UHGV virus genome: UHGV-0142349 | Direction: 5' to 3' (one strand) | DNA: 48,552 nucleotides | Source of the DNA: a virus | Shown here: positions 2,820 to 46,312 of the stretch, one piece after another | Position numbering within the stretch: the first letter of the stretch is position 1 | How the letters are laid out: the number at the start of each line of letters is the position of its first letter | Position numbers and translations under genes: made by a program | The notes under the pieces: model-generated | Database searches by the model: none | Seen by the model: the letters and a program-made list of their open reading frames with translations, nothing else | Told to the model about the DNA's origin: nothing

Positions 2820-3407
2820 ATGGAGGCAATTGCATTGTTTAATCTGATTTATGCAGATCCCCCCTGGGAATACAAAGACAAGTGTAAGGATGGGAATCGT
2901 GGCGCTGGTTTTAAGTATCCAACGATGAAAGCTGAGGATATTGCTCGTATTCCTGTCTGGCAGCTTGCTAATCCTGAATCGTGTTTGTTGGCCATGTGGT
3001 GGGTTCCGACTCAGCCAGAAGAAGCGTTGCTGGTGGTGAAAGCATGGGGATTCAGGCTGATGACCATGAAGGGCTTCACATGGAACAAATGTGGTAGCCG
3101 ACAACCAGATAAGCTGGTGATGGGGATGGGGCATATGACTCGTGCAAACAGTGAAGATTGCTTGTTTGCGGTAAAAGGCAAACTGCCGACCCGCCTTGAT
3201 GCGGGGATCATTCAGTCGTTTACATCGCCTCGTCTGGAGCATTCTCGGAAGCCTGATGTGGTTCGTGACAAGCTGGTAAGGCTGTTAGGTGATGTTCCCC
3301 GTATTGAGCTGTTTGCTCGCGGTGATTTACCTGATGGCTGGCATGGCTGGGGCAACCAGTGCAATGGAGGTATCCAGTTGCATGATGCTCTCTGGCAAGT
3401 GGCATAG
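2820..3407 (+). CDS. MT-A70 family N6-adenine DNA methyltransferase
   Basis: Catalytic DPPW motif in IYADPPWEY context; size and layout typical of phage Dam-like MT-A70 enzymes. Confidence 0.75.
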   Translation: MEAIALFNLIYADPPWEYKDKCKDGNRGAGFKYPTMKAEDIARIPVWQLANPESCLLAMWWVPTQPEEALLVVKAWGFRLMTMKGFTWNKCGSRQPDKLVMGMGHMTRANSEDCLFAVKGKLPTRLDAGIIQSFTSPRLEHSRKPDVVRDKLVRLLGDVPRIELFARGDLPDGWHGWGNQCNGGIQLHDALWQVA

Positions 3408-3519
3408 AATTATATAATTATATATTTATATAAAAATTGCTTTACAGGTGGGAAAAAATTTCCTATGGTTATACCCGAAACCGAGCGATACCCGCCCTGG
3501 CTAAACCGGAGATAACCCG
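3407..3519 (+). promoter_or_regulatory. promoter-leader cassette copy A (AT-rich motif, -35 TTTACA, 17-bp spacer, -10 TATGGT, conserved 5' leader)
   Basis: Near-identical to 35479..35591 and 45065..45180; ends at ATG 3520; GGAGA Shine-Dalgarno. Confidence 0.6.
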
Positions 3520-3789
3520 ATGAAAGTACAAGACCGTGAAGTAGTAAAAAGCCTCCTGCAATACCTGACCTCAAAAAACCTGACGGGCAGCGTTGAGTTC
3601 CGTGAAGCGTTAAAACATTTCAACGTCACTACGGTTTATCGTTGGGAAAACAAACATTCTGAAAGACCGTATGTGGTGGATGTTTTTGCGCCTGATATTG
3701 AGTGCGGTTTTGAGCGCCATTCATTCAAAAAGAAACATTCCGCTGATGTTTTTTGTGAGGTTGTATGTGCGGCAGGAGATGATGAGTGA
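3520..3789 (+). CDS. hypothetical protein (cassette-driven)
   Basis: 89 aa ORF starting right after conserved leader with SD. Confidence 0.5.
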   Translation: MKVQDREVVKSLLQYLTSKNLTGSVEFREALKHFNVTTVYRWENKHSERPYVVDVFAPDIECGFERHSFKKKHSADVFCEVVCAAGDDE

Positions 3790-3986
3790 TGCGTATTTCC
3801 TTCAAACGTGCGACTGAGCAGCAACGCAAAGAGTTCCTGGCTGATGATGTTGCGGCCGTTTATGACCTCATGAAAGAGGTTGTGGAATCAGGGAACTACA
3901 CGGCGGCAAAGATGCTTAAACTGCAATTTTTGCTGGGCGACCTGAAATACAAATCCGAAGTTGTCGCCGGACGACGCGAGCATTAA
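3786..3986 (+). CDS. hypothetical protein
   Basis: 66 aa ORF, start overlaps stop of preceding gene (ATGA), followed by terminator. Confidence 0.4.
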   Translation: MMRISFKRATEQQRKEFLADDVAAVYDLMKEVVESGNYTAAKMLKLQFLLGDLKYKSEVVAGRREH

Positions 3987-5159: not shown

Positions 5160-5394
5160 CGCATTACAGCAGCTCTTGTGCCTATCAGGGGCTGCGATAA
5201 TGCGCAAACCAAAGCTGCCTCATTAACTCCAGCTCGCTGTGGAGTTAATGCTGGTGGCTTTTTTATTTACAGGAAGGTGGGCGACCGCCGTCAGTTGCGA
5301 CCTGACGACAGTCATTCATACCCACAGGGTGCCGTGGATACAAACCGAGGCCCACTTGCTTGCACAAGCGAGGGGATTTTAGCGGATAAACGGC

Positions 5395-6018
5395 ATGACA
5401 AAACATCTTAATGTGGTTTCTTTACCACTTTCTGTGTTGATTGGTTATGAAAAGAACGCTCGCACACACTCCGTGGAGCAGGTAGATCAGATTGTTGCCA
5501 GCATACAGGAGTACGGATGGACTAATCCGATCCTGATAGACGAAAGCAACGTTGTAATTGCTGGTCATGGTCGAATTGCTGCGGCCACTCAGTTGGGGAT
5601 GGATGATGTTCCCTGCATTGTTCTGGAAGGGCTAACGGAGAATCAGAAGAAGGCATATCGTCTGGCCGACAACCGTATTCCGCTGAATGCTGGTTGGGAT
5701 GAAGAGTTGTTAAGCGCGGAGCTTGCAGATCTTGCGGCCGATGATTTTGCTCTGGACTCAATTGGTTTTACTCAGCGCGAACTGGATAACTTATTGAGTG
5801 CGGCGGTCTACGATGACACAGAAGGTATGGATATCCCATTTGAGAAGGATGAGGCCAAATCAGGCGTAAAAGTTCAGTACCTGTCATTTGGAGGTCATAA
5901 AATCCCGGCAACGGATGAGGAAGCGGATCGTTTTGACTGCGCGGTATCTCGTTATGTTGATGATAATGGCAGCTATATCGGATTTGTATCCGCATTGCTG
6001 GCAGGGGAGGTGTGCTGA
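5395..6018 (+). CDS. ParB-like nuclease domain protein (paralog 1)
   Basis: N-terminal ParB/Srx-like motifs (NARTHS.EQV, IAGHGRIAAA, KKAYRLADNR); paralogous to 8685..9275. Confidence 0.65.
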   Translation: MTKHLNVVSLPLSVLIGYEKNARTHSVEQVDQIVASIQEYGWTNPILIDESNVVIAGHGRIAAATQLGMDDVPCIVLEGLTENQKKAYRLADNRIPLNAGWDEELLSAELADLAADDFALDSIGFTQRELDNLLSAAVYDDTEGMDIPFEKDEAKSGVKVQYLSFGGHKIPATDEEADRFDCAVSRYVDDNGSYIGFVSALLAGEVC

Positions 6019-7391
6019 TGCTTCACCTGAATTACGACATAACGCACCTACGCGGCGCGGAATATAACCCGCGTTTTATCGGTGAGGATGATCTTGCGAG
6101 GCTGGCGGAAAGCGTCAGGGAGCTGGGGCTTGTGAAGCCATTGATAGTGCGCGGCGATTTGCTGGTGGCGGGACACCAAAGGACGAAGGCGCTACGTAAG
6201 TTGGGAATAACGCGTGCTGCGGTGTATGTGTTGCCCTGTGAAACGACGGTATACGACGAAGTACGGTTTAACCAACTGCATAACGGAACGGATTTTGACA
6301 GCGGAGATGAGCGTTGCAGGGTGTCCGGTCTGGAAGATAAGCATGGTTTTGTTCAGGTATCGGCAAGCCAGATCTCAGGCAATATGCGCGCGAAAATGGC
6401 ATATGTTCGAAAGAACATAGCGGAACTGGTTATCAAGTATGGTCCGTGGGGTGGTTGTGTTGCTACTCAGTCTGGCGAGGTTATTCACTGTGCTCAGTAT
6501 GCATTAGCAGCGAAGATGACGCGCACACCGCTAACGGTGTTTGTGATCCCTGATGTTGAGAAGGAAAAATACCAAAGTTATCTGAATAAAACTTATGGTG
6601 TATTTGAGTATTCTCATCTGGAGAAAACAACATACATCCAGACGTATGCGCAGCTTATGCGGTTGCGTAATGGTGGCAGCCTGAAATCAAACCTGTATGA
6701 GTCGTTGATCCTCCCGATCATTGCCAAGACGCCAAGAGGAATTGATTTTGGTTCGGGTCAGGGAGACTACGCGCGAATGCTCAGGGCAAAGGGATATAAC
6801 CTGCATGATCTTGAGCTTTTCCGCCGTAAGGGCGCTGGAAACACTCTGGATAGGACCGCAACAAACCGGATGATTGATACGCTGGTGGACGACTTAAAAA
6901 CGCGAGGGCGTTACGACTACGTGATTTGCGATAGCGTTTTGAACTCGGTCGATAGTGTCGAGGCTGAATGGTCCGTTCTGACGGTTCTGAAAGGGCTGTG
7001 TAAAGCTGGTGGGTCAATATTCTTTTCTGGCCGTAGCCGTGGAGAGCTGGAAACAGTCCTGAAGCAGACACAAGCGGCGAGTTCCAAAAGCCGGCTTTAT
7101 TTTATTGATCATAACGGTTTTACCGCGTTGTACCGGAAGGGGCACTGGTTTTACCAGAAGTTTCACTCTGATGAGGAAGTGAAGCAGTTGTGTCGTGTAC
7201 ATGGTTTCAGGATTAAGCGGTCAATATTCAACTGTAAGAGCTGGTATTTGCACGTCATTAACGATGATTCCCTTAGTTGGGCGAGTCTGGAGAAAGCTGT
7301 TCGTTTTGAGTTTGAGTTGCCGTTGCCTGGTGGTTCAACAATCGGACGATCTGATGATGTACTGGCGGCTTTCCGGCCGTTGATTAAGTAG
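6012..7391 (+). CDS. ParB-like N-terminal domain fused to class I SAM-dependent methyltransferase-like domain
   Basis: N-term LLVAGHQRTKALRKLG (ParB-like); C-term Rossmann motif I GIDFGSGQGDYA and DYVICDSVL acidic-loop motif. Confidence 0.6.
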   Translation: MLMLHLNYDITHLRGAEYNPRFIGEDDLARLAESVRELGLVKPLIVRGDLLVAGHQRTKALRKLGITRAAVYVLPCETTVYDEVRFNQLHNGTDFDSGDERCRVSGLEDKHGFVQVSASQISGNMRAKMAYVRKNIAELVIKYGPWGGCVATQSGEVIHCAQYALAAKMTRTPLTVFVIPDVEKEKYQSYLNKTYGVFEYSHLEKTTYIQTYAQLMRLRNGGSLKSNLYESLILPIIAKTPRGIDFGSGQGDYARMLRAKGYNLHDLELFRRKGAGNTLDRTATNRMIDTLVDDLKTRGRYDYVICDSVLNSVDSVEAEWSVLTVLKGLCKAGGSIFFSGRSRGELETVLKQTQAASSKSRLYFIDHNGFTALYRKGHWFYQKFHSDEEVKQLCRVHGFRIKRSIFNCKSWYLHVINDDSLSWASLEKAVRFEFELPLPGGSTIGRSDDVLAAFRPLIK

Positions 7392-27104: not shown

Positions 27105-29483
27105 GTGAGTAAATTATTATTTACGATGACTGACGCCGGGCGTCAGGAGCTGGTTAATGCCAACAAAACAGGAACAAATAAAGTTGAGATTGTTTCTGTT
27201 GGTTTAGGTAGTAGATATTATGTCACGTCAACTTCACAAACAAATATAACAAACGAAATAAAACGACTTACCACAATAGGTGGCAAAGTTGTTTCCCCTG
27301 ATACAATTCATGTAACAGCGAAGGATGATAGTAAAGATGAGTATGTTGTCCATACAATAGGATTGTATACGAATAAGGGTACGTTGTTTGCTGTATACTC
27401 ACAAGAACAAGCAATAATAAATAAAGCATCATCTACTATCGCTTTAATATCAAGTGATATAGCAATTAAAACTCTTGATACTAAAAATATTACATTTGGT
27501 GATATTGAGTTTATTAATCCTCCCGCGACCGAAACTGTTGTTGGGGTGGCAAGATTTGCTAATGAACAAGAAATTGATGCAGGTACAGATGATTCCCTTG
27601 CTGTTTCAGCAAAACGGCTTAAGCAAGCCATTGTGAAACATGAGCAATCACGTAATCATCCTGATGCAACTTTAACCTCAAAAGGTTTTGTTCAACTTAG
27701 CAGCGCCACCAATAGCACGTCTGAAACGCTTGCTGCGACGCCTAAGGCTGTTAAGGCAGCATATGACCTGGCTAATGGCAAATACACCGCACAGGACGCT
27801 ACCACAGCGCGAAAAGGGATTGTTCAGCTCAGTAGTGCCACCAACAGCACGTCTGAAACGCTAGCAGCAACACCAAAGGCTGTTAAGGCAGCGTATGATC
27901 TTGCGGCCGGAAAGGCTCCGTCCAATCACACGCATTCGTGGGAGCAGATAACAAATGTGCCTGTAGCTTCACTGACTGTAAGGGGAATAACTCAGCTCAG
28001 TAGTGCCACCAACAGCACGTCTGAAACACTGGCCGCGACATCGAAAGCTGTAAAGGTGGTAATGGATGAAACGAACAAGAAAGCGCCCCTGAACAGTCCG
28101 GCGCTGACCGGAACACCAACAACACCAACTGCGCCAAAAGGTACTAACAATACTCAGATCGCAAGCACGGCTTATGTTATGGCTGCGATCGCTGCCCTCG
28201 TGGACTCGTCGCCTGACGCGCTGAATACGCTGAACGAGCTGGCTGCGGCGTTGGGCAACGACCCGAATTTTGCGACCACCATGACTAACGCGCTTGCGGG
28301 TAAGCAACCGAAAGATGCCACCCTGACGGCGCTGGCCGGGCTTGCTACTACGGCAGACAGGTTTCCGTATTTTACGGGGAATGATGTCGCCAGCCTGGCA
28401 ACTCTGACAAAAGTCGGGCGGGATATTCTTGCGAAATCGACCGTTGCCGCCGTTATCGAATACCTCGGTTTACAGGAAACGGTAAACAAGGCTGGTAACG
28501 CCGTGCAAAAGACAGGCGATACCTTGTCCGGTGGACTTACTTTTGAAAACGACTCAATCCTTGCCTGGATTCGGAATACTGACTGGGCAAAGATTGGATT
28601 TAAAAATGATGCCGACAGCGACACTGATTCATACATGTGGTTTGAAACAGGCGACAACGGCAATGAATATTTCAAATGGAGAAGCAAACAAAGCACCACA
28701 ACAAAAGACCTGATGAATCTTAAATGGGATGCTTTGTATGTTCTTGTCAATGCCATTGTAAATGGCGAAGTCATATCAAAATCAGCAAACGGCCTACGTA
28801 TTGCTTATGGTAATTACGGATTCTTTATTCGTAATGATGGTTCAAATACATACTTCATGTTGACAAACTCCGGTGACAACATGGGGACTTATAACGGATT
28901 AAGGCCATTATGGATTAATAACGCTACTGGCGCTGTTTCGATGGGGCGTGGCCTTAATGTTTCAGGGGAGACACTTTCAGACCGTTTTGCTATTAACAGC
29001 AGTAATGGTATGTGGATTCAGATGCGCGATAACAACGCTATCTTTGGGAAAAATATAGTTAACACTGATAGCGCTCAGGCGTTGCTTCGCCAGAATCACG
29101 CCGACCGAAAGTTCATGATAGGTGGACTGGGGAACAAGCAATTTGGCATCTACATGATTAATAACTCAAGGACAGCCAATGGCACCGATGGTCAGGCGTA
29201 CATGGATAATAACGGGAACTGGCTTTGCGGCTCGCAAGTTATTCCCGGAAACTATGGCAATTTTGACTCCAGATATGTGAAAGATGTTCGACTTGGTTCA
29301 CAGCAATATTATGGAGTGAACAACTGGCAAACATGGAATTTCCAGTGCCCGTCAGGTCATGTATTGTCTGGTATTAATGTTCAGGATACAGGGTCCAACT
29401 CTGCCGATAATATAGCGGGCGTTTATTACAGACCCGTTCAAAAGTATATAAATGGCACCTGGTATAATGTAGCGAGCGTTTAA
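27105..29483 (+). CDS. tail fiber protein (constant N-terminal part plus invertible C-terminal part)
   Basis: 792 aa; three tandem copies of [19 protein letters not shown] motif; crossover repeat at 28462..28490 inside the gene. Confidence 0.8.
27688..28065 (+). repeat. three ~80-bp direct repeats inside tail fiber gene
   Basis: Repeated nucleotide blocks at about 27688-27772, 27820-27900, 27985-28065. Confidence 0.7.
28462..28490. repeat. left inverted repeat (crossover site) of invertible segment
   Basis: ACCTCGGTTTACAGGAAACGGTAAACAAG; reverse complement matches 31505..31533 with 2 mismatches. Confidence 0.75.
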
Positions 29484-29484
29484 T

Positions 29485-30012
29485 ATGATGCACTTAAAGA
29501 ACATAAAAGCGGGTAACGCTAAAACACTGGAACAGTATGAGTTAACAAAGAAACACGGAGTTATCTGGCTTTACTCTGAGGACGGAAAAAACTGGTATGA
29601 GGAAGTGAAAAACTTTCAGTCAGACACAATAAAGATTGTTTACGATGCAAATAATATTATTGTCGCCATCACTAAAGATGCCTCCACGCTTAACCCTGAA
29701 GGTTTTAGCGTCGTTGAGGTTCCAGATATTACAGCCAACCGCCGCGCTGATGATTCAGGAAAGTGGATGTTTAAGGATGGAGCTGTAGTTAAACGGATTT
29801 ATACGGCAGACGAACAGCAACAACAAGCCGAATCACAAAAGGCCGCATTGCTTTCCGAAGCTGAATCAGTCATCCAGCCGCTGGAACGCGCTGTCAGGCT
29901 GAATATGGCAACAGACGAGGAACGCACACGACTGGAAACATGGGAACGCTACAGTGTTCTGGTCAGCCGTGTGGATACGGCAAATCCTGAATGGCCACAA
30001 AAGCCTGAGTAA
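29485..30012 (+). CDS. tail fiber assembly protein (current orientation)
   Basis: 175 aa; paralog of 30041..30574 on opposite strand. Confidence 0.7.
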
Positions 30013-30018
30013 AAATTA

Positions 30019-30036
30019 AGGCCCGATATCGGGCCT
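30019..30036. terminator. bidirectional hairpin between convergent tail fiber assembly genes
   Basis: aggcccgatatcgggcct perfect palindrome. Confidence 0.45.
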
Positions 30037-30040
30037 TCTC

Positions 30041-30574
30041 TCATTCTGGTTGTTCGGGAAACGTTACTGGCAGGCTGGAGGTGTCTGTGGATTCGACTTT
30101 CTGCGCGTAGAGCATCCACTCGGTTAATTTTTGTTTATTCTCGTCGGAAATGATGCCCAGCCGTAGCTGTGAGTCCCATAGCTGGGTTTTATCCCTGACA
30201 AGTTGCAACAGGCTTTGCTTTTCATTCTCTGCCTGCTGCCTCTGTTCCTCCTCGGTATAAGTTCGCTTTATCACTACGCCATCTTTGAACATCCATTTAC
30301 CCGAAATATCAGCCCGGCGATTTGCTGTAATATCAGGTAATTCAACGACGCTTGCGCCTTCTGGATTAATTGCTGAAACATCCTTTTCAATACAAATAAT
30401 AACGCCGTTGTGGTCATAGACCATTTTCAACGTATCAGGCTGAAAGTTCTTTTGTTCCTCATACCAGTTTTCCCCATCCTCTGTATAAAGCCATTTGATG
30501 TTAAATTGTTTCGTTAGCTGGTATTGCTCTTTTGTTTTAGGGTTGCCAGCAGTAATATTTTTTAAGTGCATCAT
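30041..30574 (-). CDS. tail fiber assembly protein (alternative)
   Basis: 177 aa, same N-terminal MMHLKNI.AGN motif as 29485..30012 product. Confidence 0.7.
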   Translation of the reverse strand: MMHLKNITAGNPKTKEQYQLTKQFNIKWLYTEDGENWYEEQKNFQPDTLKMVYDHNGVIICIEKDVSAINPEGASVVELPDITANRRADISGKWMFKDGVVIKRTYTEEEQRQQAENEKQSLLQLVRDKTQLWDSQLRLGIISDENKQKLTEWMLYAQKVESTDTSSLPVTFPEQPE

Positions 30575-30576
30575 AA

Positions 30577-31524
30577 TTAAATACTCCCCGCGTTATACCA
30601 CGTTCCATTAATGCAATACTGAATTGGCCTTGCCTGAGTTGTATCAATTAATTCATCACGGTTTCCGTTAACTGACCCCGTAACGACATAACCTGACCTG
30701 TCAGACCAGCCGGGACCATTCCATGTCTGAACAGATGACAGACCGCCAAGACGAATACCTGTAATAAACCTTGAGTTACATTCTGCCTGCGTATATGCAC
30801 CAACATCTCCCGCTGATGGCTTACGTGTTGTGGTGTAAATTTCTGACCAGTCAGCTTCGAATCCGTAACCATCACGCGCTGAACGATAAAAAATACCGCC
30901 GTTCCTGTAATTCACACGGAACTGTACGGCAGGGCAACTCCCCGTATTCATATTGAAGTGGAGGATTAATGTCGATGCGCCACCAATATTTGCGTTATAG
31001 ACCCCGCTATTCCAGTTCCAGCCAACAGCTTTATCATTTCCGACAGTGCTTCCTGTTTGCCCTAAAGCAAATGCAGGCTGCTGGTTTTTCGTGTTGTAGT
31101 CTCGTCGCCAGCCAGGAGCATAAGCATCACCATGATTAATATAAGTGAATTGAGCGTTAGTGATTCCGCCACCGCTGGAAGTGCTCGGGGTGGTTACACG
31201 GATGGTCATGGCTCCTTTATTACCCATAACCTCAATAACGCAACCTGCAAGATGAATAGTTCCACAGCCAGTATCGGTAATAATTTTATTATTGCCGTAT
31301 GACCATGAACATTTGCACATCCAGTATGGGTGATTGAATGCCCCTTGAGAATCAAGCCATTCAATCAATTGTGCCGTTGTCCAGTTCCCTGCCCCTGTAC
31401 TAATAGCACTGTGAAAAGCACGACATGCACCAATATTTTTTGTGAAGGTATCTTTTCCAGGAATATCTGCGCCGTTCTGGTTTTTCTGTAATGCGCCAGA
31501 AGCCTTGTTTATCGTTTCCTGCAA
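30577..31524 (-). CDS. alternative tail fiber C-terminal segment
   Basis: N-terminus (M)QETINKASG parallels LQETVNKAG at crossover in the expressed fiber; likely continues into the right repeat with no own start. Confidence 0.65.
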   Translation of the reverse strand: MQETINKASGALQKNQNGADIPGKDTFTKNIGACRAFHSAISTGAGNWTTAQLIEWLDSQGAFNHPYWMCKCSWSYGNNKIITDTGCGTIHLAGCVIEVMGNKGAMTIRVTTPSTSSGGGITNAQFTYINHGDAYAPGWRRDYNTKNQQPAFALGQTGSTVGNDKAVGWNWNSGVYNANIGGASTLILHFNMNTGSCPAVQFRVNYRNGGIFYRSARDGYGFEADWSEIYTTTRKPSAGDVGAYTQAECNSRFITGIRLGGLSSVQTWNGPGWSDRSGYVVTGSVNGNRDELIDTTQARPIQYCINGTWYNAGSI

Positions 31525-31533
31525 ACCGAGGTT
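31505..31533. repeat. right inverted repeat (crossover site) of invertible segment
   Basis: CTTGTTTATCGTTTCCTGCAAACCGAGGT. Confidence 0.75.
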
Positions 31534-31605
31534 TTTGCGAATTGCCTCTGTGTCGTCTGAACGATATTTTTTCCCGCTTTTAGCAACAATCGCGGTTTAG
31601 AAAGT

Positions 31606-32160
31606 ATGCAATATGGTTATGCGAGGGTGTCAACTTTTGACCAGAATTTGGAATTACAACTGGAGGCGCTCAGGAGTTCAGGATGTGACCGGATTTTTGA
31701 AGATAAAATATCCGGTGCTAAATCAAAACGACCAGGGCTTGATAAGCTACTGAAGGTGTTACGGCCGGGCGATACGGTTATTGTCTGGAAGCTGGATCGA
31801 ATGGGGCGTTCTCTGATTCATCTTGTTGATTTACTTAACCATTTTTTATCAAACAACATTGAGTTTATTTCGATTACGGAAGGGATAAAAATTAGCACTT
31901 CAATTGGCCGCTTTGCCTACACGATGCTGAGTGCAGTCGCAGAGATGGAGCGGGAAAATATGATTGAAAGAACGCGTGCAGGATTGGCGGTGGCAAGGGC
32001 TAATGGCAGGATAGGAGGACGCCGCTCAAAATTGGCCCCAGAGCAATGGGAACAGATCGGAAGGCTTATTGCGAATGGTGTTTCACGTAAGCGGATAGCG
32101 ATTATCTTCGATGTTACCTTATCCACGCTTTACCGCAGGTTTCCGGCTGGGAATCATTGA
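31606..32160 (+). CDS. serine recombinase, DNA invertase (Gin/Hin/Pin/Cin family)
   Basis: N-terminal YARVSTFDQNLELQ with catalytic Ser; small size with C-terminal HTH; adjacent to invertible segment. Confidence 0.85.
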   Translation: MQYGYARVSTFDQNLELQLEALRSSGCDRIFEDKISGAKSKRPGLDKLLKVLRPGDTVIVWKLDRMGRSLIHLVDLLNHFLSNNIEFISITEGIKISTSIGRFAYTMLSAVAEMERENMIERTRAGLAVARANGRIGGRRSKLAPEQWEQIGRLIANGVSRKRIAIIFDVTLSTLYRRFPAGNH

Positions 32161-35470: not shown

Positions 35471-35478
35471 TGCTCACA

Positions 35479-35591
35479 GAATTATATAATTATAGATTTA
35501 TATAAAAAGTGCTTTACATGTGGGAAAAAATTTCCTAAGGTTATACCCGAAACCGAGCGATACCCGCCCTGGTTAAACCGGAGATAACCCG
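35479..35591 (+). promoter_or_regulatory. promoter-leader cassette copy B
   Basis: Near-identical to copies at 3407 and 45065; -35 TTTACA, -10 TAAGGT, conserved leader with GGAGA SD. Confidence 0.6.
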
Positions 35592-35972
35592 ATGAGCATG
35601 ATTAAAATCCGCAAAAACGCTTTCCTTAAAATTCAAACTATCCTGGCTGGTTCTGTTGGCGTGATTTGCCGTTCTTCCTCAAGCCGCATCGATGACTGCT
35701 ACGATGATGAGTATCGTGTGTCCTCATGCGATGAGGCTTTAACCTGGCTGAAGGAGAATCAGGAACGTGCCCAGGTATATCTGGAAACAGAGAACGGCAA
35801 TCAGATGCTGCGTATTAGCGGTCGTTATGGATTTGAAACTACATTCATGGCCTATTTTAATCAGGCTTACTTTGACAAGGAGTTGGCCTGGTACACTGAT
35901 CGCATGAGCAAAAGCGAGCCAGCCCCGATTACACCGCCGAACAATAAACCATTTTTATTCCTCGTTAAGTAA
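35592..35972 (+). CDS. hypothetical protein (cassette-driven)
   Basis: 126 aa ORF. Confidence 0.5.
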   Translation: MSMIKIRKNAFLKIQTILAGSVGVICRSSSSRIDDCYDDEYRVSSCDEALTWLKENQERAQVYLETENGNQMLRISGRYGFETTFMAYFNQAYFDKELAWYTDRMSKSEPAPITPPNNKPFLFLVK

Positions 35973-35979
35973 ACACAAT

Positions 35980-36008
35980 GCGCAAAGTGTCATTTTGACA
36001 CTTTGCGC
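35980..36008. repeat. perfect palindrome (13-bp arms, 3-bp spacer) GCGCAAAGTGTCA-TTT-TGACACTTTGCGC
   Basis: Seen directly; AAAGTGTCATTTTGA half also at 45010..45024. Confidence 0.6.
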
Positions 36009-36075
36009 GTGTTAATATAGGGGGCGTTTGAAGATAGATAACTTATTGTGGGGCAAGCCGATAACTTACATTGGG

Positions 36076-36501
36076 TTAGCTTGAATAGGTAGTTGGTATT
36101 TTGAGCATATGGCCAATCTCTTCGAGATGCTTAGATGGATTCTCCCCAGTCTTACCTTCATGTATTGACGCTATATAGTTCAAATTTTGAGCTGCCCCAA
36201 GAATCTCGGTGTCTGATGGAACAAGACGAAAGCCGATATGTAACTTTTTGATATAGAAAGGTAAAGTGGAATATTTCGCCATTAACTGTGCTGCGGAATC
36301 TTTTAGATCATGAATGATTTCTGGCTTTAAGTTCGAGCCAGGATTCACTATTTTTGCTTGGTTACACAATAACAGATTGGATATTTTCCCTAGTTGTTCC
36401 CTGAATGAAATGTAAGGCTCAATAGCTCCTTTGACGATGAGTTGGCCTAGAACAAAAACACTTACACCAGTGACCACGGTGACAAAAGCAGATGAACTCA
36501 T
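36076..36501 (-). CDS. hypothetical membrane-anchored protein
   Basis: 141 aa, N-terminal TMD; region looks AT-richer than flanks; divergent from HTH gene. Confidence 0.45.
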   Translation of the reverse strand: MSSSAFVTVVTGVSVFVLGQLIVKGAIEPYISFREQLGKISNLLLCNQAKIVNPGSNLKPEIIHDLKDSAAQLMAKYSTLPFYIKKLHIGFRLVPSDTEILGAAQNLNYIASIHEGKTGENPSKHLEEIGHMLKIPTTYSS

Positions 36502-36602
36502 TTTTTACCTAAAGCCTAAAGATTGGATTGTTAATACATCTTATTTTGTCGTGAGTGGCTATGTCTAATTTATTGAATATCTAGGGAAAGGTAGAGGATG
36601 TA

Positions 36603-36875
36603 ATGACGGGTTACGAATTGAAATTATGGCGTCGTGGGATGAACTGGACGCAGGAGCGAGCCGCCGAAGAGTTTGGGATATCGTTGGCTACATATAAGCG
36701 ATATGAGAAGGGGGTGCCGCCGAGGGTCATGGAGATGGCCATTCGCGTTCTGTCGTTTGACGATATGGTTAAGGATCTTTCACACCTTGATAAAGATGCG
36801 ATTCTGTTAAGGCTGCAAACCCTTGTATGGGAAAAGGTTAAAGTGTCGGCAGAATTGGAACAAGGGATCAAATGA
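36603..36875 (+). CDS. HTH (XRE-like) DNA-binding protein
   Basis: 90 aa; WTQERAAEEFGISLATYKRYEKG resembles an HTH. Confidence 0.45.
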   Translation: MTGYELKLWRRGMNWTQERAAEEFGISLATYKRYEKGVPPRVMEMAIRVLSFDDMVKDLSHLDKDAILLRLQTLVWEKVKVSAELEQGIK

Positions 36876-36923
36876 TCCTTTACGGATCGTTTTATGGTGG
36901 TGTAATGTAAGCGCCAGAAAGAC

Positions 36924-36948
36924 AAAAACCGCCTTGCCGGGCGGTTTT
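36924..36948. terminator. bidirectional rho-independent terminator
   Basis: aaaaccgcc-ttgccg-ggcggtttt (A-run before, T-run after). Confidence 0.55.
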
Positions 36949-37484
36949 CAGTCTGAAATTTAAATCTTGCTTGGTAGGCTGGATTTAAAAAGACACCTCT
37001 TGATTGGGGCGGCTTTCTTGCGTCTAAAGATAATCAAATCTTTTTGCGCCTGCAACCCCTTTTTTACTGGTGCTCATTTCAGACTCACGCTCGCGTCGTT
37101 GTCTTTGCCACTTCGTTGGGTTCGGTGTTTTTGGGCGAAGTGGCGCGCGGGTATGCGTACAAGGGGAAAGTGTGCTGACGCAAGCTAGGAACAGCGATCT
37201 AAACTAAGTCGAGTCTGAGAAAGGCAGGAGTGCGACAACTCGCCTGTGCTCTATGAGCAGAAGAAGGTATATCAGACGACCAATGGCATGATTGTGGGCC
37301 ACAGGGCGCACACGGCGGCGAAGCATTGGAAACGATGTGGAGCTATCTGGTGGCATGAGTTCCGGTACTCGATCTCGAGCTTTTTTGATGCTTTTGAGAA
37401 GGGGCCGGAACTCCGGTAAAGGGCACCCTGTATGGGGGGAGGGGGGGTTGTGTCTGAAGGGTGGTTATCGGTTATGGTGGAATT

Positions 37485-37683: not shown

Positions 37684-38952
37684 TTATGGTCTGCTTTTCT
37701 GTGCCAGCTTATCAGCACATGTTTTTATCAGATCCTGTAGTGTCCTGGCTGGCAGGTTTGCATCCAGAACGCTGAGTATGCTGTTGTGATCAGCCTGGTC
37801 GACTACTTTGCCTGTCGGTGGTAGTAGCTTGAGCTGAGGATTCAGGTCCTCGTCAAAGCTGATAAGTGCTCTGGCGTTCCTGAGCAGATCAAGAAGTAAG
37901 GCTGATATCACATTTTCCTGAGTCATTGCTGGCAGACTTAGCGCCGCTTTAGTTTTCTCCGTCGCCTTGTCAAACTCTTTGATTAGTGTCTTGCGGTAGT
38001 TCGGTTCCGTTAATAGCCGATTATGCTCTGTTGCCGCGCGGATAATCGTTTTTTCTTGGTACAGTCGTTTAGCCAGATCACGCTCGTACTGTGTTTTTAA
38101 CACGCTGCTGATAGCGTTAAAGGCTTCAATGTAGGCCAGCTTGATATCTTTTACGCCTGGACCGTCGATGCTCTCCATGAGCAAGGTAAATCCGTCTTTT
38201 GTCATGCGATAGATTGTTATTTCGCGGTCGCTTCCTTCCAACGGTCGTTGCTCTTTAAAGAAATGACGCGCCGCAGCTGTGCGAGGAATGCGTAACGCAT
38301 CGATGGCCATAACGATGGAATTGTTTGTGGTGCTGAATGCCTGGGCAACATCGGCCGAGGTTGTGAGTGGCTCGTTATTGCACACCTTAATGTAAAACAT
38401 CGGTTTGGCGTTGAGCGTATCGACAACCTCACGAGCATTGTTTGGCGAGACGGTTACGGTCGCGGCCGTTTGCGCGTTCTGGTTGAAGTAGCAGTCTTCC
38501 AGCCGTTCGAACACATCCCACGCTTGGTTAGTTTCAAGCATTTTGGCGTGACGTGCAGCCCCGCGTTCTGTCCAGAGAATGAGGGAGCGAACGTTACGGG
38601 CGATTTTCACAGAGTGACTTTTAGTTACCTTGTGGTTAACAGAGTAGTTTAAAACTACTCTGTGCTCGTCGCTCTCTCTTTTAGAGGGGGCGTCATTAAC
38701 TGAATCTCTTAAAGAGTTTTTGTTCTTCACATCATTATCTTGAGTCACTTTGTGCTTTAACTCTCGAAGTTCGTTACCTTCAATTTTGAAGTAGTGCTTA
38801 CCTTCAATGAAGCGTTCCTTATTCTCATGATGATTTTGTCGAATGCGTACAGGAGATACGCCGTAAAGCTGTGCCAGTAACTCGGTAGTAATGACAGGGA
38901 TTTGGTTATGCAGGATAGGCTGTAGGGTGTTAACGGTCGGAAGCGTTTTCAT
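37684..38952 (-). CDS. antirepressor (KilA-N/ORF6N-like N-domain, Ant-like)
   Basis: 422 aa; N-terminal ITTELLAQLYGVSPVRIRQNHHENKERFIEGKHYFKIEGNELRELK resembles ORF6N/KilA-N. Confidence 0.65.
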   Translation of the reverse strand: MKTLPTVNTLQPILHNQIPVITTELLAQLYGVSPVRIRQNHHENKERFIEGKHYFKIEGNELRELKHKVTQDNDVKNKNSLRDSVNDAPSKRESDEHRVVLNYSVNHKVTKSHSVKIARNVRSLILWTERGAARHAKMLETNQAWDVFERLEDCYFNQNAQTAATVTVSPNNAREVVDTLNAKPMFYIKVCNNEPLTTSADVAQAFSTTNNSIVMAIDALRIPRTAAARHFFKEQRPLEGSDREITIYRMTKDGFTLLMESIDGPGVKDIKLAYIEAFNAISSVLKTQYERDLAKRLYQEKTIIRAATEHNRLLTEPNYRKTLIKEFDKATEKTKAALSLPAMTQENVISALLLDLLRNARALISFDEDLNPQLKLLPPTGKVVDQADHNSILSVLDANLPARTLQDLIKTCADKLAQKSRP

Positions 38953-39498: not shown

Positions 39499-39893
39499 TT
39501 CGTGCTGATCGGATTCGCGGTCCTTTCAGCATTACGTTGTTGTATAAACAACCACGCAAGCACAAGCAGCAAATTGATTTTACTCAAAAGGTAATAATAG
39601 TCCACTATTATACATCAAAAAATTGTGGTTCTTGTTGTGTCAGCAAACTCACAGATTGTGGGTAGGTTACTGATTTTGTGAAAATAAACTGTTTTTTTCG
39701 TTTAATTTCTTTCCTATTACTAATCTTAAAATAATCGTAAAATACCTGTGGACCTTCCCGCCGATTCGCACCCGGGCACCGACTTTAGGGGAGGATTTCC
39801 TGTTGCCGTACATGCAAGCACAAGCAGCCGTGCTTGCTCTCGCGTTGTTTTCGTCGGTGGGGATGCCGTGAAACGGCCTGTAAGGGCCATACA

Positions 39894-40016
39894 ATGAAAA
39901 AATACTGTATGTGTATTTTTATCGTTGTTACTGGAGCTTTGTTTACGCCACATGGGGAGGGTTGGAAGATTACTGATAACGCTCTGAATGTGACGATAAA
40001 CATTAGCAGCAAGTAG
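39894..40016 (+). CDS. small hydrophobic protein (40 aa), candidate type I toxin-like peptide
   Basis: MKKYCMCIFIVVTGALFTPHGEGWKITDNALNVTINISSK; followed by terminator at 40022..40045. Confidence 0.3.
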   Translation: MKKYCMCIFIVVTGALFTPHGEGWKITDNALNVTINISSK

Positions 40017-40021
40017 CGATT

Positions 40022-40045
40022 AGGCCCCTTCGGGGGCCTTTTTTA
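40022..40045 (+). terminator. rho-independent terminator
   Basis: ggcccc-ttcg-ggggcc then TTTTTT. Confidence 0.65.
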
Positions 40046-40527: not shown

Positions 40528-40563
40528 TTATATAAATCTATAAAACTATAATTATATATTACG
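40528..40563. repeat. AT-rich near-palindromic motif copy
   Basis: TTATATAAATCTATAAAACTATAATTATATATTAC. Confidence 0.5.
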
Positions 40564-41235: not shown

Positions 41236-41340
41236 TTATATAATTATATAAATCTATATTTATAGAACGAGGTAAGCATAACCAACTTTTTGGCGGATGA
41301 AAAGCGTTTTATATAATTATATAAATCTATAATCATATAA
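41236..41340. repeat. two direct copies of AT-rich motif upstream of parA (candidate centromere/operator)
   Basis: TTATATAATTATATAAATCTATA at 41236-41258 and 41308-41330. Confidence 0.55.
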
Positions 41341-45011: not shown

Positions 45012-45064
45012 AAGTGTCATTTTGAGCTGTTTTGATGGTGTGTAGACATCGGGAACATCGAAAA

Positions 45065-45180
45065 TCTATAAATATATAATTATAGATTTATATAAAAAGT
45101 GCTTTACAGGTGGGAAAAAATTTCCTAAGGTTATACCCGAAACCGAGCGATACCCGCCCTGGTTAAACCGGAGAAATCTG
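45065..45180 (+). promoter_or_regulatory. promoter-leader cassette copy C
   Basis: AT-rich palindrome, -35 TTTACA, -10 TAAGGT, conserved leader; diverges only in last 7 nt before ATG. Confidence 0.6.
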
Positions 45181-46248
45181 ATGAATAAACAAGTAATTAT
45201 TTCTGACTGGATCAACAACCCTAACAGCCTGTTAAGCACTGATACTGGCTACCTATTACGCCATGTTAATGGTCGTATGGTCAAAAGCGATGAGCACGAA
45301 ACCTTTTTCTTTGTTGAAGACGATGGGCGCATCTATGAGGATGGTTACTCTTATGAAGCCCAAACTGGTTGTATCCCTGCGGAGCTGGTGGACGTAACAG
45401 AAGATCTGCGCAAAGCATGGCTTGAACAGCAGCAGCGCGGAGATGATTACGTAAACACCTATCAGGAACGCCAGAACGCGCGTCTTGCCCGATATATTGC
45501 TCGTGCAGAAAAAGCCAGAAAAGAAGGTGCGGTAGCGCATAAGCGAGCGCATGACCTGTTGGATGTGATCCCGTTAGGCCAGCCGATTTTAGTTGACCAT
45601 TATAGCGCGAAAGGCCATCGCCGCCGTTTGTCTAAAGCTGATGCGTTATTCAGAAAAGCGTTTGTTGAATGCGAAAGTAAAGCATCACACTACGAGAGCA
45701 AAGCCGCAGGTGTTGGTCGTAATGGAATTTCGTCTGATGATCCTGATGCGCTATTTAAGTTGCTTCGTAAGCTGCAAGGCTGCATGAAGTCACACGTCAA
45801 AATGAAGGCCGCAAATAAGGCCATTCGCAAATACAAAAAAGACCAATTACAGCAGCTTTCTGCATTAATCGATCTCAGGTTTACAGAAAGCGAAGCCAAA
45901 GAGTTACTGGCCGGAGATTTCTGTGGGCACATCGGATTCCCTTCATACGCACTGAGCAACAATAAGGCCGAAATCAAACGACTACAGAGCCGTATTAAGG
46001 AGCTTGAATCGGTCAAGTCTGTAACAGGAGCACAGCGCGAAGAATACGACGGCTTTTCTATGGAGATAGATCCAGAGGATAACCGCATCCTGTTTTATTT
46101 CCCTGGCAAACCAGAGGCAAACATTCGTTCGCTGCTTAAATCACGCGCCTTTAAGTGGAGTCCAACCCGTAATGCATGGGTTCGTAAGATTACTCCAAAC
46201 GCCCTGGCTGATGCCCGATATCTGAAAGAATCGCTATTGAAAGCCTGA
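45181..46248 (+). CDS. hypothetical protein (cassette-driven, 355 aa)
   Basis: ORF begins right after conserved leader; no family recognised. Confidence 0.5.
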   Translation: MNKQVIISDWINNPNSLLSTDTGYLLRHVNGRMVKSDEHETFFFVEDDGRIYEDGYSYEAQTGCIPAELVDVTEDLRKAWLEQQQRGDDYVNTYQERQNARLARYIARAEKARKEGAVAHKRAHDLLDVIPLGQPILVDHYSAKGHRRRLSKADALFRKAFVECESKASHYESKAAGVGRNGISSDDPDALFKLLRKLQGCMKSHVKMKAANKAIRKYKKDQLQQLSALIDLRFTESEAKELLAGDFCGHIGFPSYALSNNKAEIKRLQSRIKELESVKSVTGAQREEYDGFSMEIDPEDNRILFYFPGKPEANIRSLLKSRAFKWSPTRNAWVRKITPNALADARYLKESLLKA

Positions 46249-46281: not shown

Positions 46282-46312
46282 TATAGAATTATATATTTAT
46301 ATAAATGTATAA
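46280..46312. repeat. AT-rich near-palindromic motif copy
   Basis: TATATAGAATTATATATTTATATAAATGTATAA. Confidence 0.5.

Follow-up and report, generated by a model that had tools for sequence, protein, structure and literature searches.

The locus described here lies in the viral genome UHGV-0142349, a stretch of 48,552 nt which is called the window throughout and which, as judged from its genes and its relatives, is a phage-plasmid of Escherichia coli of about 48.5 kb. Two genes are divergent at this locus, orf141 on the minus strand, which encodes a predicted membrane protein of 141 aa, and a gene for a helix-turn-helix (HTH) protein of 90 aa on the plus strand. Both open reading frames are where the original prediction had placed them; it had read the two together as one AT-rich, horizontally acquired module of the exclusion or abortive-infection type. 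The features of the locus are as follows.

35475-35595, plus strand: 121-nt promoter and leader module with a dispersed AT-rich motif, preceding orf126
35980-36008: perfect palindrome, 13+3+13 (13-nt arms, 3-nt loop), a backbone feature
36019-36602: indel cassette of 584 bp, which contains orf141, both its non-coding flanks and a new ribosome-binding region for the HTH gene
36076-36501, minus strand: orf141, 141 aa, with an N-terminal transmembrane (TM) helix at about residues 5-23 and then a four-helix bundle (phrog_7512)
36538-36567, minus strand: candidate sigma-70 promoter for orf141, TAGACA-18-TAAGAT, from a consensus scan; inside the cassette, 37 nt upstream of the ATG
36603-36875, plus strand: 90-aa Xre-type HTH regulator (PF01381, phrog_6962)
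36923-36950: intrinsic terminator-like hairpin with flanking A and T runs, closing the plus-strand gene block; backbone

The region was matched at 98-99% identity by circular E. coli plasmids of 46-57 kb and by the Yersinia pestis phages vB_YpM_39, 41 and 44. In the matching plasmid and phage records there are repA, a HigB/RelE-type toxin gene with an HTH antitoxin gene, and an antirepressor-like gene of the Rha/ORF6N type. Directly upstream of this antirepressor gene the window encodes a C4 antisense RNA of the P1/P7 type together with C4 targets, and its tail genes include a segment that can invert. It is this combination of repA, toxin-antitoxin (TA) pair, antirepressor, C4 RNA and invertible tail genes by which the element is classified as a phage-plasmid. 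Membership of the pSLy3 group was considered and rejected: this group falls within the SSU5 supergroup, and the phage-plasmids of that supergroup have about double the size of this element of about 48 kb. The features of the element outside the slot are listed below.

27680-28072: 93-nt unit in three diverged copies (67-100% identity), within a 792-aa ORF at 27105-29483
29479-32160: invertible host-range segment
29479-29645 and 30414-30580: inverted repeats of 71-80 nt, in the invertible segment
29485-30012 (plus) and 30041-30574 (minus): two opposed tail-fibre assembly genes, in the invertible segment
30577-31524, minus strand: alternative tail-fibre C-terminal gene, in the invertible segment
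31606-32160: Gin/Cin-type serine invertase, in the invertible segment
34776-35428, plus strand: type II TA pair, HigB/RelE-type toxin (PF05973 Gp49, E 6e-23) and HTH antitoxin (PF01381), with a 1-base overlap
37684-38952, minus strand: ORF6N+Rha antirepressor-like gene, 422 aa
39190-39389 (minus) and 39748-40044 (plus): Rfam matches to C4 antisense RNA (70.8 bits), isrK, a1/b1 C4 targets and ryfA (143 bits)

The TA pair sits two genes upstream of the slot which holds the cassette, and TA pairs also adjoin relatives of orf141 on other plasmids and in the phage-plasmid D6. The Rfam-matched C4 region is a P1/P7-type ImmI module and lies upstream of a 75-aa ORF and the 422-aa antirepressor-like gene. 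The latter is a single intact ORF in the window (compare 5186-6328 of locus L001), and the annotation of p48 and pGPT24-02-C gives a shorter Rha gene and an ORF6N pseudogene at this place. The 93-nt repeats of the 792-aa ORF are probably a repeated domain of a tail-fibre protein.

The variable part of the locus was delimited by aligning the alleles of the window, p48, pGPT24-02-C and Yersinia phage vB_YpM_41, in which identity runs up to position 36018 and resumes at the ATG of the HTH gene at 36603. Between these two points the window and p48 have the 584-bp allele with orf141, which stands in place of the 17-bp spacer tgtgcgaggagggtgct of pGPT24-02-C, the ATCC 25922 plasmid and most other relatives. 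The short spacer contains the Shine-Dalgarno sequence of the HTH gene, and in the cassette allele this ribosome-binding region is supplied by the cassette. Across 72 E. coli plasmids of this backbone, otherwise 98-99% identical, the cassette was present in 13 and the other 59 were without orf141; the 13 genomes cover the whole query, whereas the rest are shorter by 567 bp and align to it in two parts (record spans of 1801 versus 1234 bp). PLSDB has about 59 relatives of the backbone, and 12 of these carry the cassette. The Yersinia phages have a third allele of the slot, where the 17-bp spacer is followed by a 318-bp element placed exactly at the HTH start codon, which is thereby parted from its Shine-Dalgarno sequence; orf141 is absent from the three sequenced isolates vB_YpM_39/41/44. 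This element (positions 3539-3856 of locus L003, vB_YpM_41, OR545054.1) is MITE-like: its terminal inverted repeats are 38 nt long and 92% complementary, and the target duplication reads GCTAT(G). No direct repeats were found at the junctions of the cassette, so its entry looks like a recombinational swap and not like a transposition. Parsimony and GC content, the two grounds on which a direction was assigned, suggest a gain of the cassette and not a replacement.

From these alignments the variable unit is orf141 with its two non-coding flanks alone. The HTH gene, the palindrome and the terminator-like hairpin are present in all alleles and therefore belong to the backbone. The palindrome and the hairpin had been predicted to bracket the acquired module; both exist, but they are found equally in the relatives without orf141 and so mark no boundary of it. 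The idea of a horizontally acquired, moron-like module can be kept for the orf141 cassette, by its occurrence in 13 of the 72 plasmids and by its relatives in exclusion-gene and moron slots, and has to be given up for the HTH gene. A gene present between conserved flanks and absent in close relatives is what is called a moron, and the orf141 cassette is distributed in this way; that orf141 taken alone is a moron we regard as very probable on these comparisons.

The base composition of the region was computed since the pair had been said to be AT-richer than its flanks. This was confirmed for orf141 (39.4% GC) and for the 101-bp divergent spacer at 36502-36602 (31.7%), but not for the HTH gene, whose 48.0% lies above the mean of the window (44.5%). 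Taken as one stretch, the cassette has 38.8% GC, 1.3 sd under that mean; ranked among all 583-bp windows it stands at the 14th percentile, and of 83 non-overlapping windows 11 have a GC content as low or lower. Composition alone is therefore not more than chance would give, and it was dropped as a sign of foreign origin, although it had been offered as a marker of the acquired segment.

The palindrome lies 8 nt past the stop codon of orf126 and 67 nt past that of orf141, so placed that it may serve as a terminator or attenuator for both genes; the short allele and the Yersinia phage have it too. Two other readings of the palindrome were rejected: one of several operators of the HTH protein, since there is no second copy within the window, and a sigma-70 promoter overlapping it, since by eye a TTGACA hexamer is present with no -10 at usable spacing. 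The hairpin at 36923-36950 looks like a bidirectional terminator. The cassette holds one promoter-like site, and the hairpin downstream of orf141 belongs to the backbone. The consensus scan found 2 promoter-like sites in the region versus 3.6 expected from shuffling, so the promoter of orf141 is given as a candidate only; promoter and terminator scans around three orf141 homologues likewise gave counts not above the shuffled expectation.

The HTH protein was recognised by PF01381 with 29.2 bits, above the Pfam gathering threshold of 23, as had been predicted. Its first 50-66 residues are 46-53% identical to genes annotated as transcriptional regulators in Klebsiella, Erwinia and Serratia phages, its match to RstR is weak, and it shows weak similarity to MqsA- and HipB-type antitoxins, all three being under the NCBIfam cut-offs for RstR, MqsA and HipB. 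The gene is followed by the same downstream sequence in all alleles, so that it is assigned to the backbone. A homologue stands alone in the Serratia marcescens plasmid pSM22 (NC_015972.3; positions 3512-3757 of locus L048), divergent from a plasmid recA-umuD-umuC operon, which hints that this regulator family moves independently. The loss of contact between start codon and Shine-Dalgarno sequence in the Yersinia phage isolates suggests that lytic growth may not need the HTH protein.

It could be argued that orf141 and the HTH gene were acquired together as a two-gene module, either regulator and effector or a TA-like pair, for the genes are divergent around a common 101-bp spacer and the HTH protein has its weak likeness to MqsA- and HipB-type antitoxins. 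But the flanks of the HTH gene are unchanged in the Yersinia phages and in the relatives that lack orf141 (59 of 72), the homologue in pSM22 is alone, and in about 16 contexts no HTH gene is conserved beside the homologues of orf141. A type II TA pair in particular is contradicted by the divergent order of the genes and by the occurrence of each without the other in relatives. A joint module is for these reasons very improbable, and the divergent pair which was predicted as the unit is better described as one backbone gene and one inserted gene: the HTH protein is, on this comparative evidence, a backbone regulator which is unrelated to orf141 and is not its partner.

The transcriptional setting of the slot is given by the 121-nt module at 35475-35595. 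This module occurs in three copies, 87-95% identical up to the ATG (3403-3523, 35475-35595 and 45065-45185), and its AT-rich core TATAATTATA(G/T)ATTTATATAA was found at eight loci in the window versus 0.01 expected by chance. The sites, listed here, are mostly directly upstream of gene starts, including those of a parA-like gene and a DUF3560 gene.

2255-2291: AT-rich motif site
3405-3433: AT-rich motif site
35482-35505: AT-rich motif site
40528-40556: AT-rich motif site
41236-41267: AT-rich motif site
41309-41337: AT-rich motif site
45064-45095: AT-rich motif site
46284-46304: AT-rich motif site

The leader of the module folds better than its shuffled versions (z = -2.7), and no Rfam family matched it. 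By its position the module at 35475-35595 is the predicted driver of the orf126 unit, and orf141 is inserted backwards into this unit, which would be part of an element-wide regulon. Any read-through to the HTH gene in the cassette allele would be antisense to orf141.

The orf141 protein was predicted to have a single N-terminal transmembrane segment, and the Kyte-Doolittle scan agrees: the best 19-residue window starts at residue 5, the next-best value elsewhere is 0.47, and no second hydrophobic helix was seen. The AlphaFold model (pLDDT 79, pTM 0.73) consists of the TM helix and a four-helix bundle. For the topology, 69 family members were compared. The tail before the TM helix has a median of 4 residues with a mean of 0.16 Lys/Arg, the 15 residues after the helix hold 2.4 Lys/Arg on average, and this bias is present in 68 of the 69 members. 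The well-established positive-inside rule would put the N-terminal tail outside and leave the bundle in the cytoplasm, and it predicts that there is no cleavable signal peptide. We infer that orf141 is an inner-membrane protein with one N-terminal helix, a tail of about 4 residues that faces outwards and, on the cytoplasmic side, a four-helix bundle of about 115 residues.

The TM helix is also the best-conserved segment of the family, with a column entropy of 1.77 versus 2.0-2.6 for the helices of the bundle. Nearly invariant within it are T8, G12, V13, F16 and Q20, and elsewhere P29, L45, P95, N108, L133 and Y139; no catalytic-looking motif was seen in the conservation of the family. A helix conserved to this extent is therefore probably not a passive anchor, and it probably makes a specific contact within the membrane, through self-association or with a partner.

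A word-indexed search gave 37 enterobacterial homologues of orf141, all annotated as hypothetical, and the full profile search extended the family to 694 clusters at 50% identity, nearly all of 135-155 aa; narrower family alignments used in a locus search added few further loci. Outside the Enterobacterales the named relatives are in Pseudoalteromonas, Chromohalobacter, Acidobacteriota MAGs and one Margulisiibacteriota MAG. Lower GC and the lack of an annotated function could be taken to mean that orf141 is a chance or decaying reading frame in an AT-rich spacer, but length and architecture are kept across the family down to about 25% identity, dN/dS against orf109 of the phage-plasmid D6 is 0.20, by which the sequences show purifying selection, and the AlphaFold model is confident. 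The probability of a chance frame is in our view negligible.

The remote homology and structure searches that had been proposed for this protein led to no described family. There was no Pfam match for the orf141 protein at E<=0.1, nor for the 69 aligned relatives at E<=0.01; no NCBIfam model matched the protein of the window; and PADLOC-DB 2.0.0 gave no match to it at E<=1, the 69 relatives giving single scattered hits only, at E>=0.0045. PHROGs returned phrog_7512 alone, which is labelled as of unknown function, the structure search with the model gave generic bundle matches only, and no characterised member of the family was found in the literature. The sole marginal match, to a Mediator subunit (E 0.008, profile against sequences of solved structures), was judged to be a coiled-helix artefact.

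The relatives of orf141 are solitary genes in accessory slots of prophages, satellite-like elements, plasmids and phage-plasmids, and no conserved partner gene was seen in about 16 independent contexts. In PLSDB 345 plasmids match orf141, of which 263 are conjugative, and the DNA of these matches is similar in the coding sequence only, which means that no fixed flanks travel with the gene. On Salmonella plasmids the relative directly adjoins a Phd-ParE or an Abi_2 gene; in Serratia it is near genes for RdgC, a Dam-type methylase and umuDC-like proteins; on ColV-type IncF virulence plasmids it is beside the iron-uptake genes sitABCD and IS1; and an IncX1 plasmid has it as well. A search of 50,697 sequenced phages found the gene in the temperate D6 only, where it is between humD and phd-doc.

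Distant relatives occupy recognised exclusion or moron slots of prophages. At least 4 different lambdoid prophage backbones have the gene on the opposite strand, flanked by the replication genes and by NinB/RusA/Q. Two Chromohalobacter P2-like prophages have it, again on the opposite strand, with tail-fibre genes on one side and the sheath gene on the other. This place is the Z-region, which in P2 holds the exclusion gene fun(Z) in reverse orientation and is one of three regions where foreign genes are common in P2-like phages (PMC3091744). Integrase-proximal slots hold it in a prophage, a P2-like element and a satellite-like element which has capsid, small terminase and integrase genes. One relative is two genes away from a ThsA-Macro gene, one is in a setting without an obvious mobile-element signature, and some are in chromosomal settings which appear non-mobile.

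These contexts bear on what the protein may do. One possibility is that orf141 is lysogenic-conversion or plasmid cargo which alters the membrane physiology of the host, for instance its tolerance of stress, its envelope homeostasis or a fitness related to virulence. IncF ColV-type virulence plasmids commonly have the gene beside sitABCD, some members are in chromosomal, apparently non-phage settings, and no defence family matches it. Against this stand the recurrent placement of relatives in exclusion-gene slots (the P2 Z-region, the lambdoid nin region and integrase-proximal sites of satellites) and their position directly beside Abi_2 and TA genes. Such slots also hold other cargo, so that the argument from the slots is a statistical one, and the copies on conjugative virulence plasmids and at non-mobile chromosomal sites leave some room for a role in host physiology. 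We consider this role unlikely, though it deserves to be kept in view.

A further alternative is that orf141 acts on other mobile elements or on host defences, for example by plasmid entry exclusion or by inhibiting a membrane-associated defence system. The share of conjugative plasmids among the PLSDB matches (263 of 345) and the neighbouring genes of maintenance or leading-region type (umuDC-like, RdgC, Dam methylase) agree with it. The gene, however, is also present in integrated prophages and in a phage-plasmid without conjugation genes, and its reverse orientation in early operons suggests expression in the lysogen and not on entry, which makes this alternative improbable.

The best overall explanation, to which we would give an even chance, is that the orf141 cassette is a moron and probably encodes a membrane exclusion or defence factor expressed in the lysogen. 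An optional, self-contained cassette would have been swapped, in reverse orientation, into a variable slot between the backbone genes orf126 and HTH, its protein would be made in the lysogenic (plasmid) state, and it would act at the inner membrane to guard its carrier from other phages. The statement that orf141 is made in the lysogen and protects its carrier from other phages at the inner membrane follows from location and architecture, and we hold it as a serious possibility that falls somewhat short of even. Protection could come by a block of DNA entry or of conduit formation (Sie-like), or by a failure of the membrane triggered on infection, for example through infection-triggered oligomerisation (Abi-like). 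In the model the cytoplasmic bundle and the conserved Gly/Gln helix would fit the two mechanisms equally, interference with a phage conduit or host partner on one side and oligomerisation on the other. The defence reading has against it that a cytoplasmic bundle differs from the classical injection blockers, which face the periplasm. No similarity of orf141 to known exclusion or defence proteins was found in Pfam, PHROGs and PADLOC or in comparison with HK97 gp15 and P2 Fun(Z).

The feature is in itself of an ordinary kind, a moron in a phage-plasmid which happens to be a member of a large undescribed family of membrane proteins. As judged from its sequence and its surroundings, orf141 is a reasonable candidate for a new single-gene exclusion or defence function. 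Going further, the whole family may tentatively be proposed as a new and widespread single-gene anti-phage system of prophages, satellites, plasmids and phage-plasmids, in Gammaproteobacteria and beyond, in which a cytoplasmic four-helix bundle is anchored by a TM helix with conserved Gly and Gln, and this helix would block the DNA-entry conduit of the phage at the inner membrane or form a lethal pore upon infection.

A family of about 700 clusters (50% identity) without a Pfam, NCBIfam or PADLOC entry is a gap in annotation, and the family recurs in the exclusion-gene slots of P2-like and lambdoid prophages and is carried by hundreds of E. coli plasmids of clinical origin. A direct test is possible with plasmids that are nearly isogenic apart from the 584-bp cassette and with the Yersinia phages which lack it. 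If orf141 protects, it would be a very small single-gene addition to the defence repertoire and would help to explain the competition among phage-plasmids; if it does not, it would be an ordinary accessory gene.

Among the known systems, lactococcal Sie2009 and Ltp of Streptococcus TP-J34 have their working domain outside the membrane, whereas the bundle of orf141 is predicted to be cytoplasmic. Both are small, N-terminally anchored prophage proteins which block DNA injection (PMC10883804); orf141 is like them in its size and N-terminal anchor and unlike them in that their hosts are Gram-positive. SieA of P22 is a single gene for a prophage-expressed inner-membrane protein of about 160 aa, which is sufficient alone and has a conserved motif on the cytoplasmic side (PMC10883804). 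It is like orf141 in kind, as a single-gene inner-membrane protein, but it has three predicted TM helices against one, its motif FxRYPxEAxxFNK (PMC10883804) is absent from the orf141 sequence, and no profile in Pfam or PHROGs links the two. P2 fun(Z) occupies the same slot as the Chromohalobacter relatives, on the strand opposite to the tail genes (PMC3091744), but Fun(Z) is a protein of 528 aa versus 141 aa and the hhalign probability is 0.2%. The HTH protein of the locus is similar to the small phage regulators of the Xre/Cro type in its HTH_3 domain and in its weak match to RstR of CTXphi.

HK97 gp15 is a small predicted inner-membrane protein which is made by the prophage, needs no second protein and blocks DNA entry (PMC10883804). 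With 62 aa versus 141 aa and an hhalign probability of 1% it has no sequence relationship to orf141, and of the classical traits of a moron a difference in composition and a private promoter are weak or unproven for orf141. The likeness is in the arrangement: gp15 and the 'reverse moron' gp23 are, in the same way as orf141, extra genes between conserved neighbours in near-identical genomes, and lambdoid morons can be reverse-oriented with a hairpin downstream, as orf141 is.
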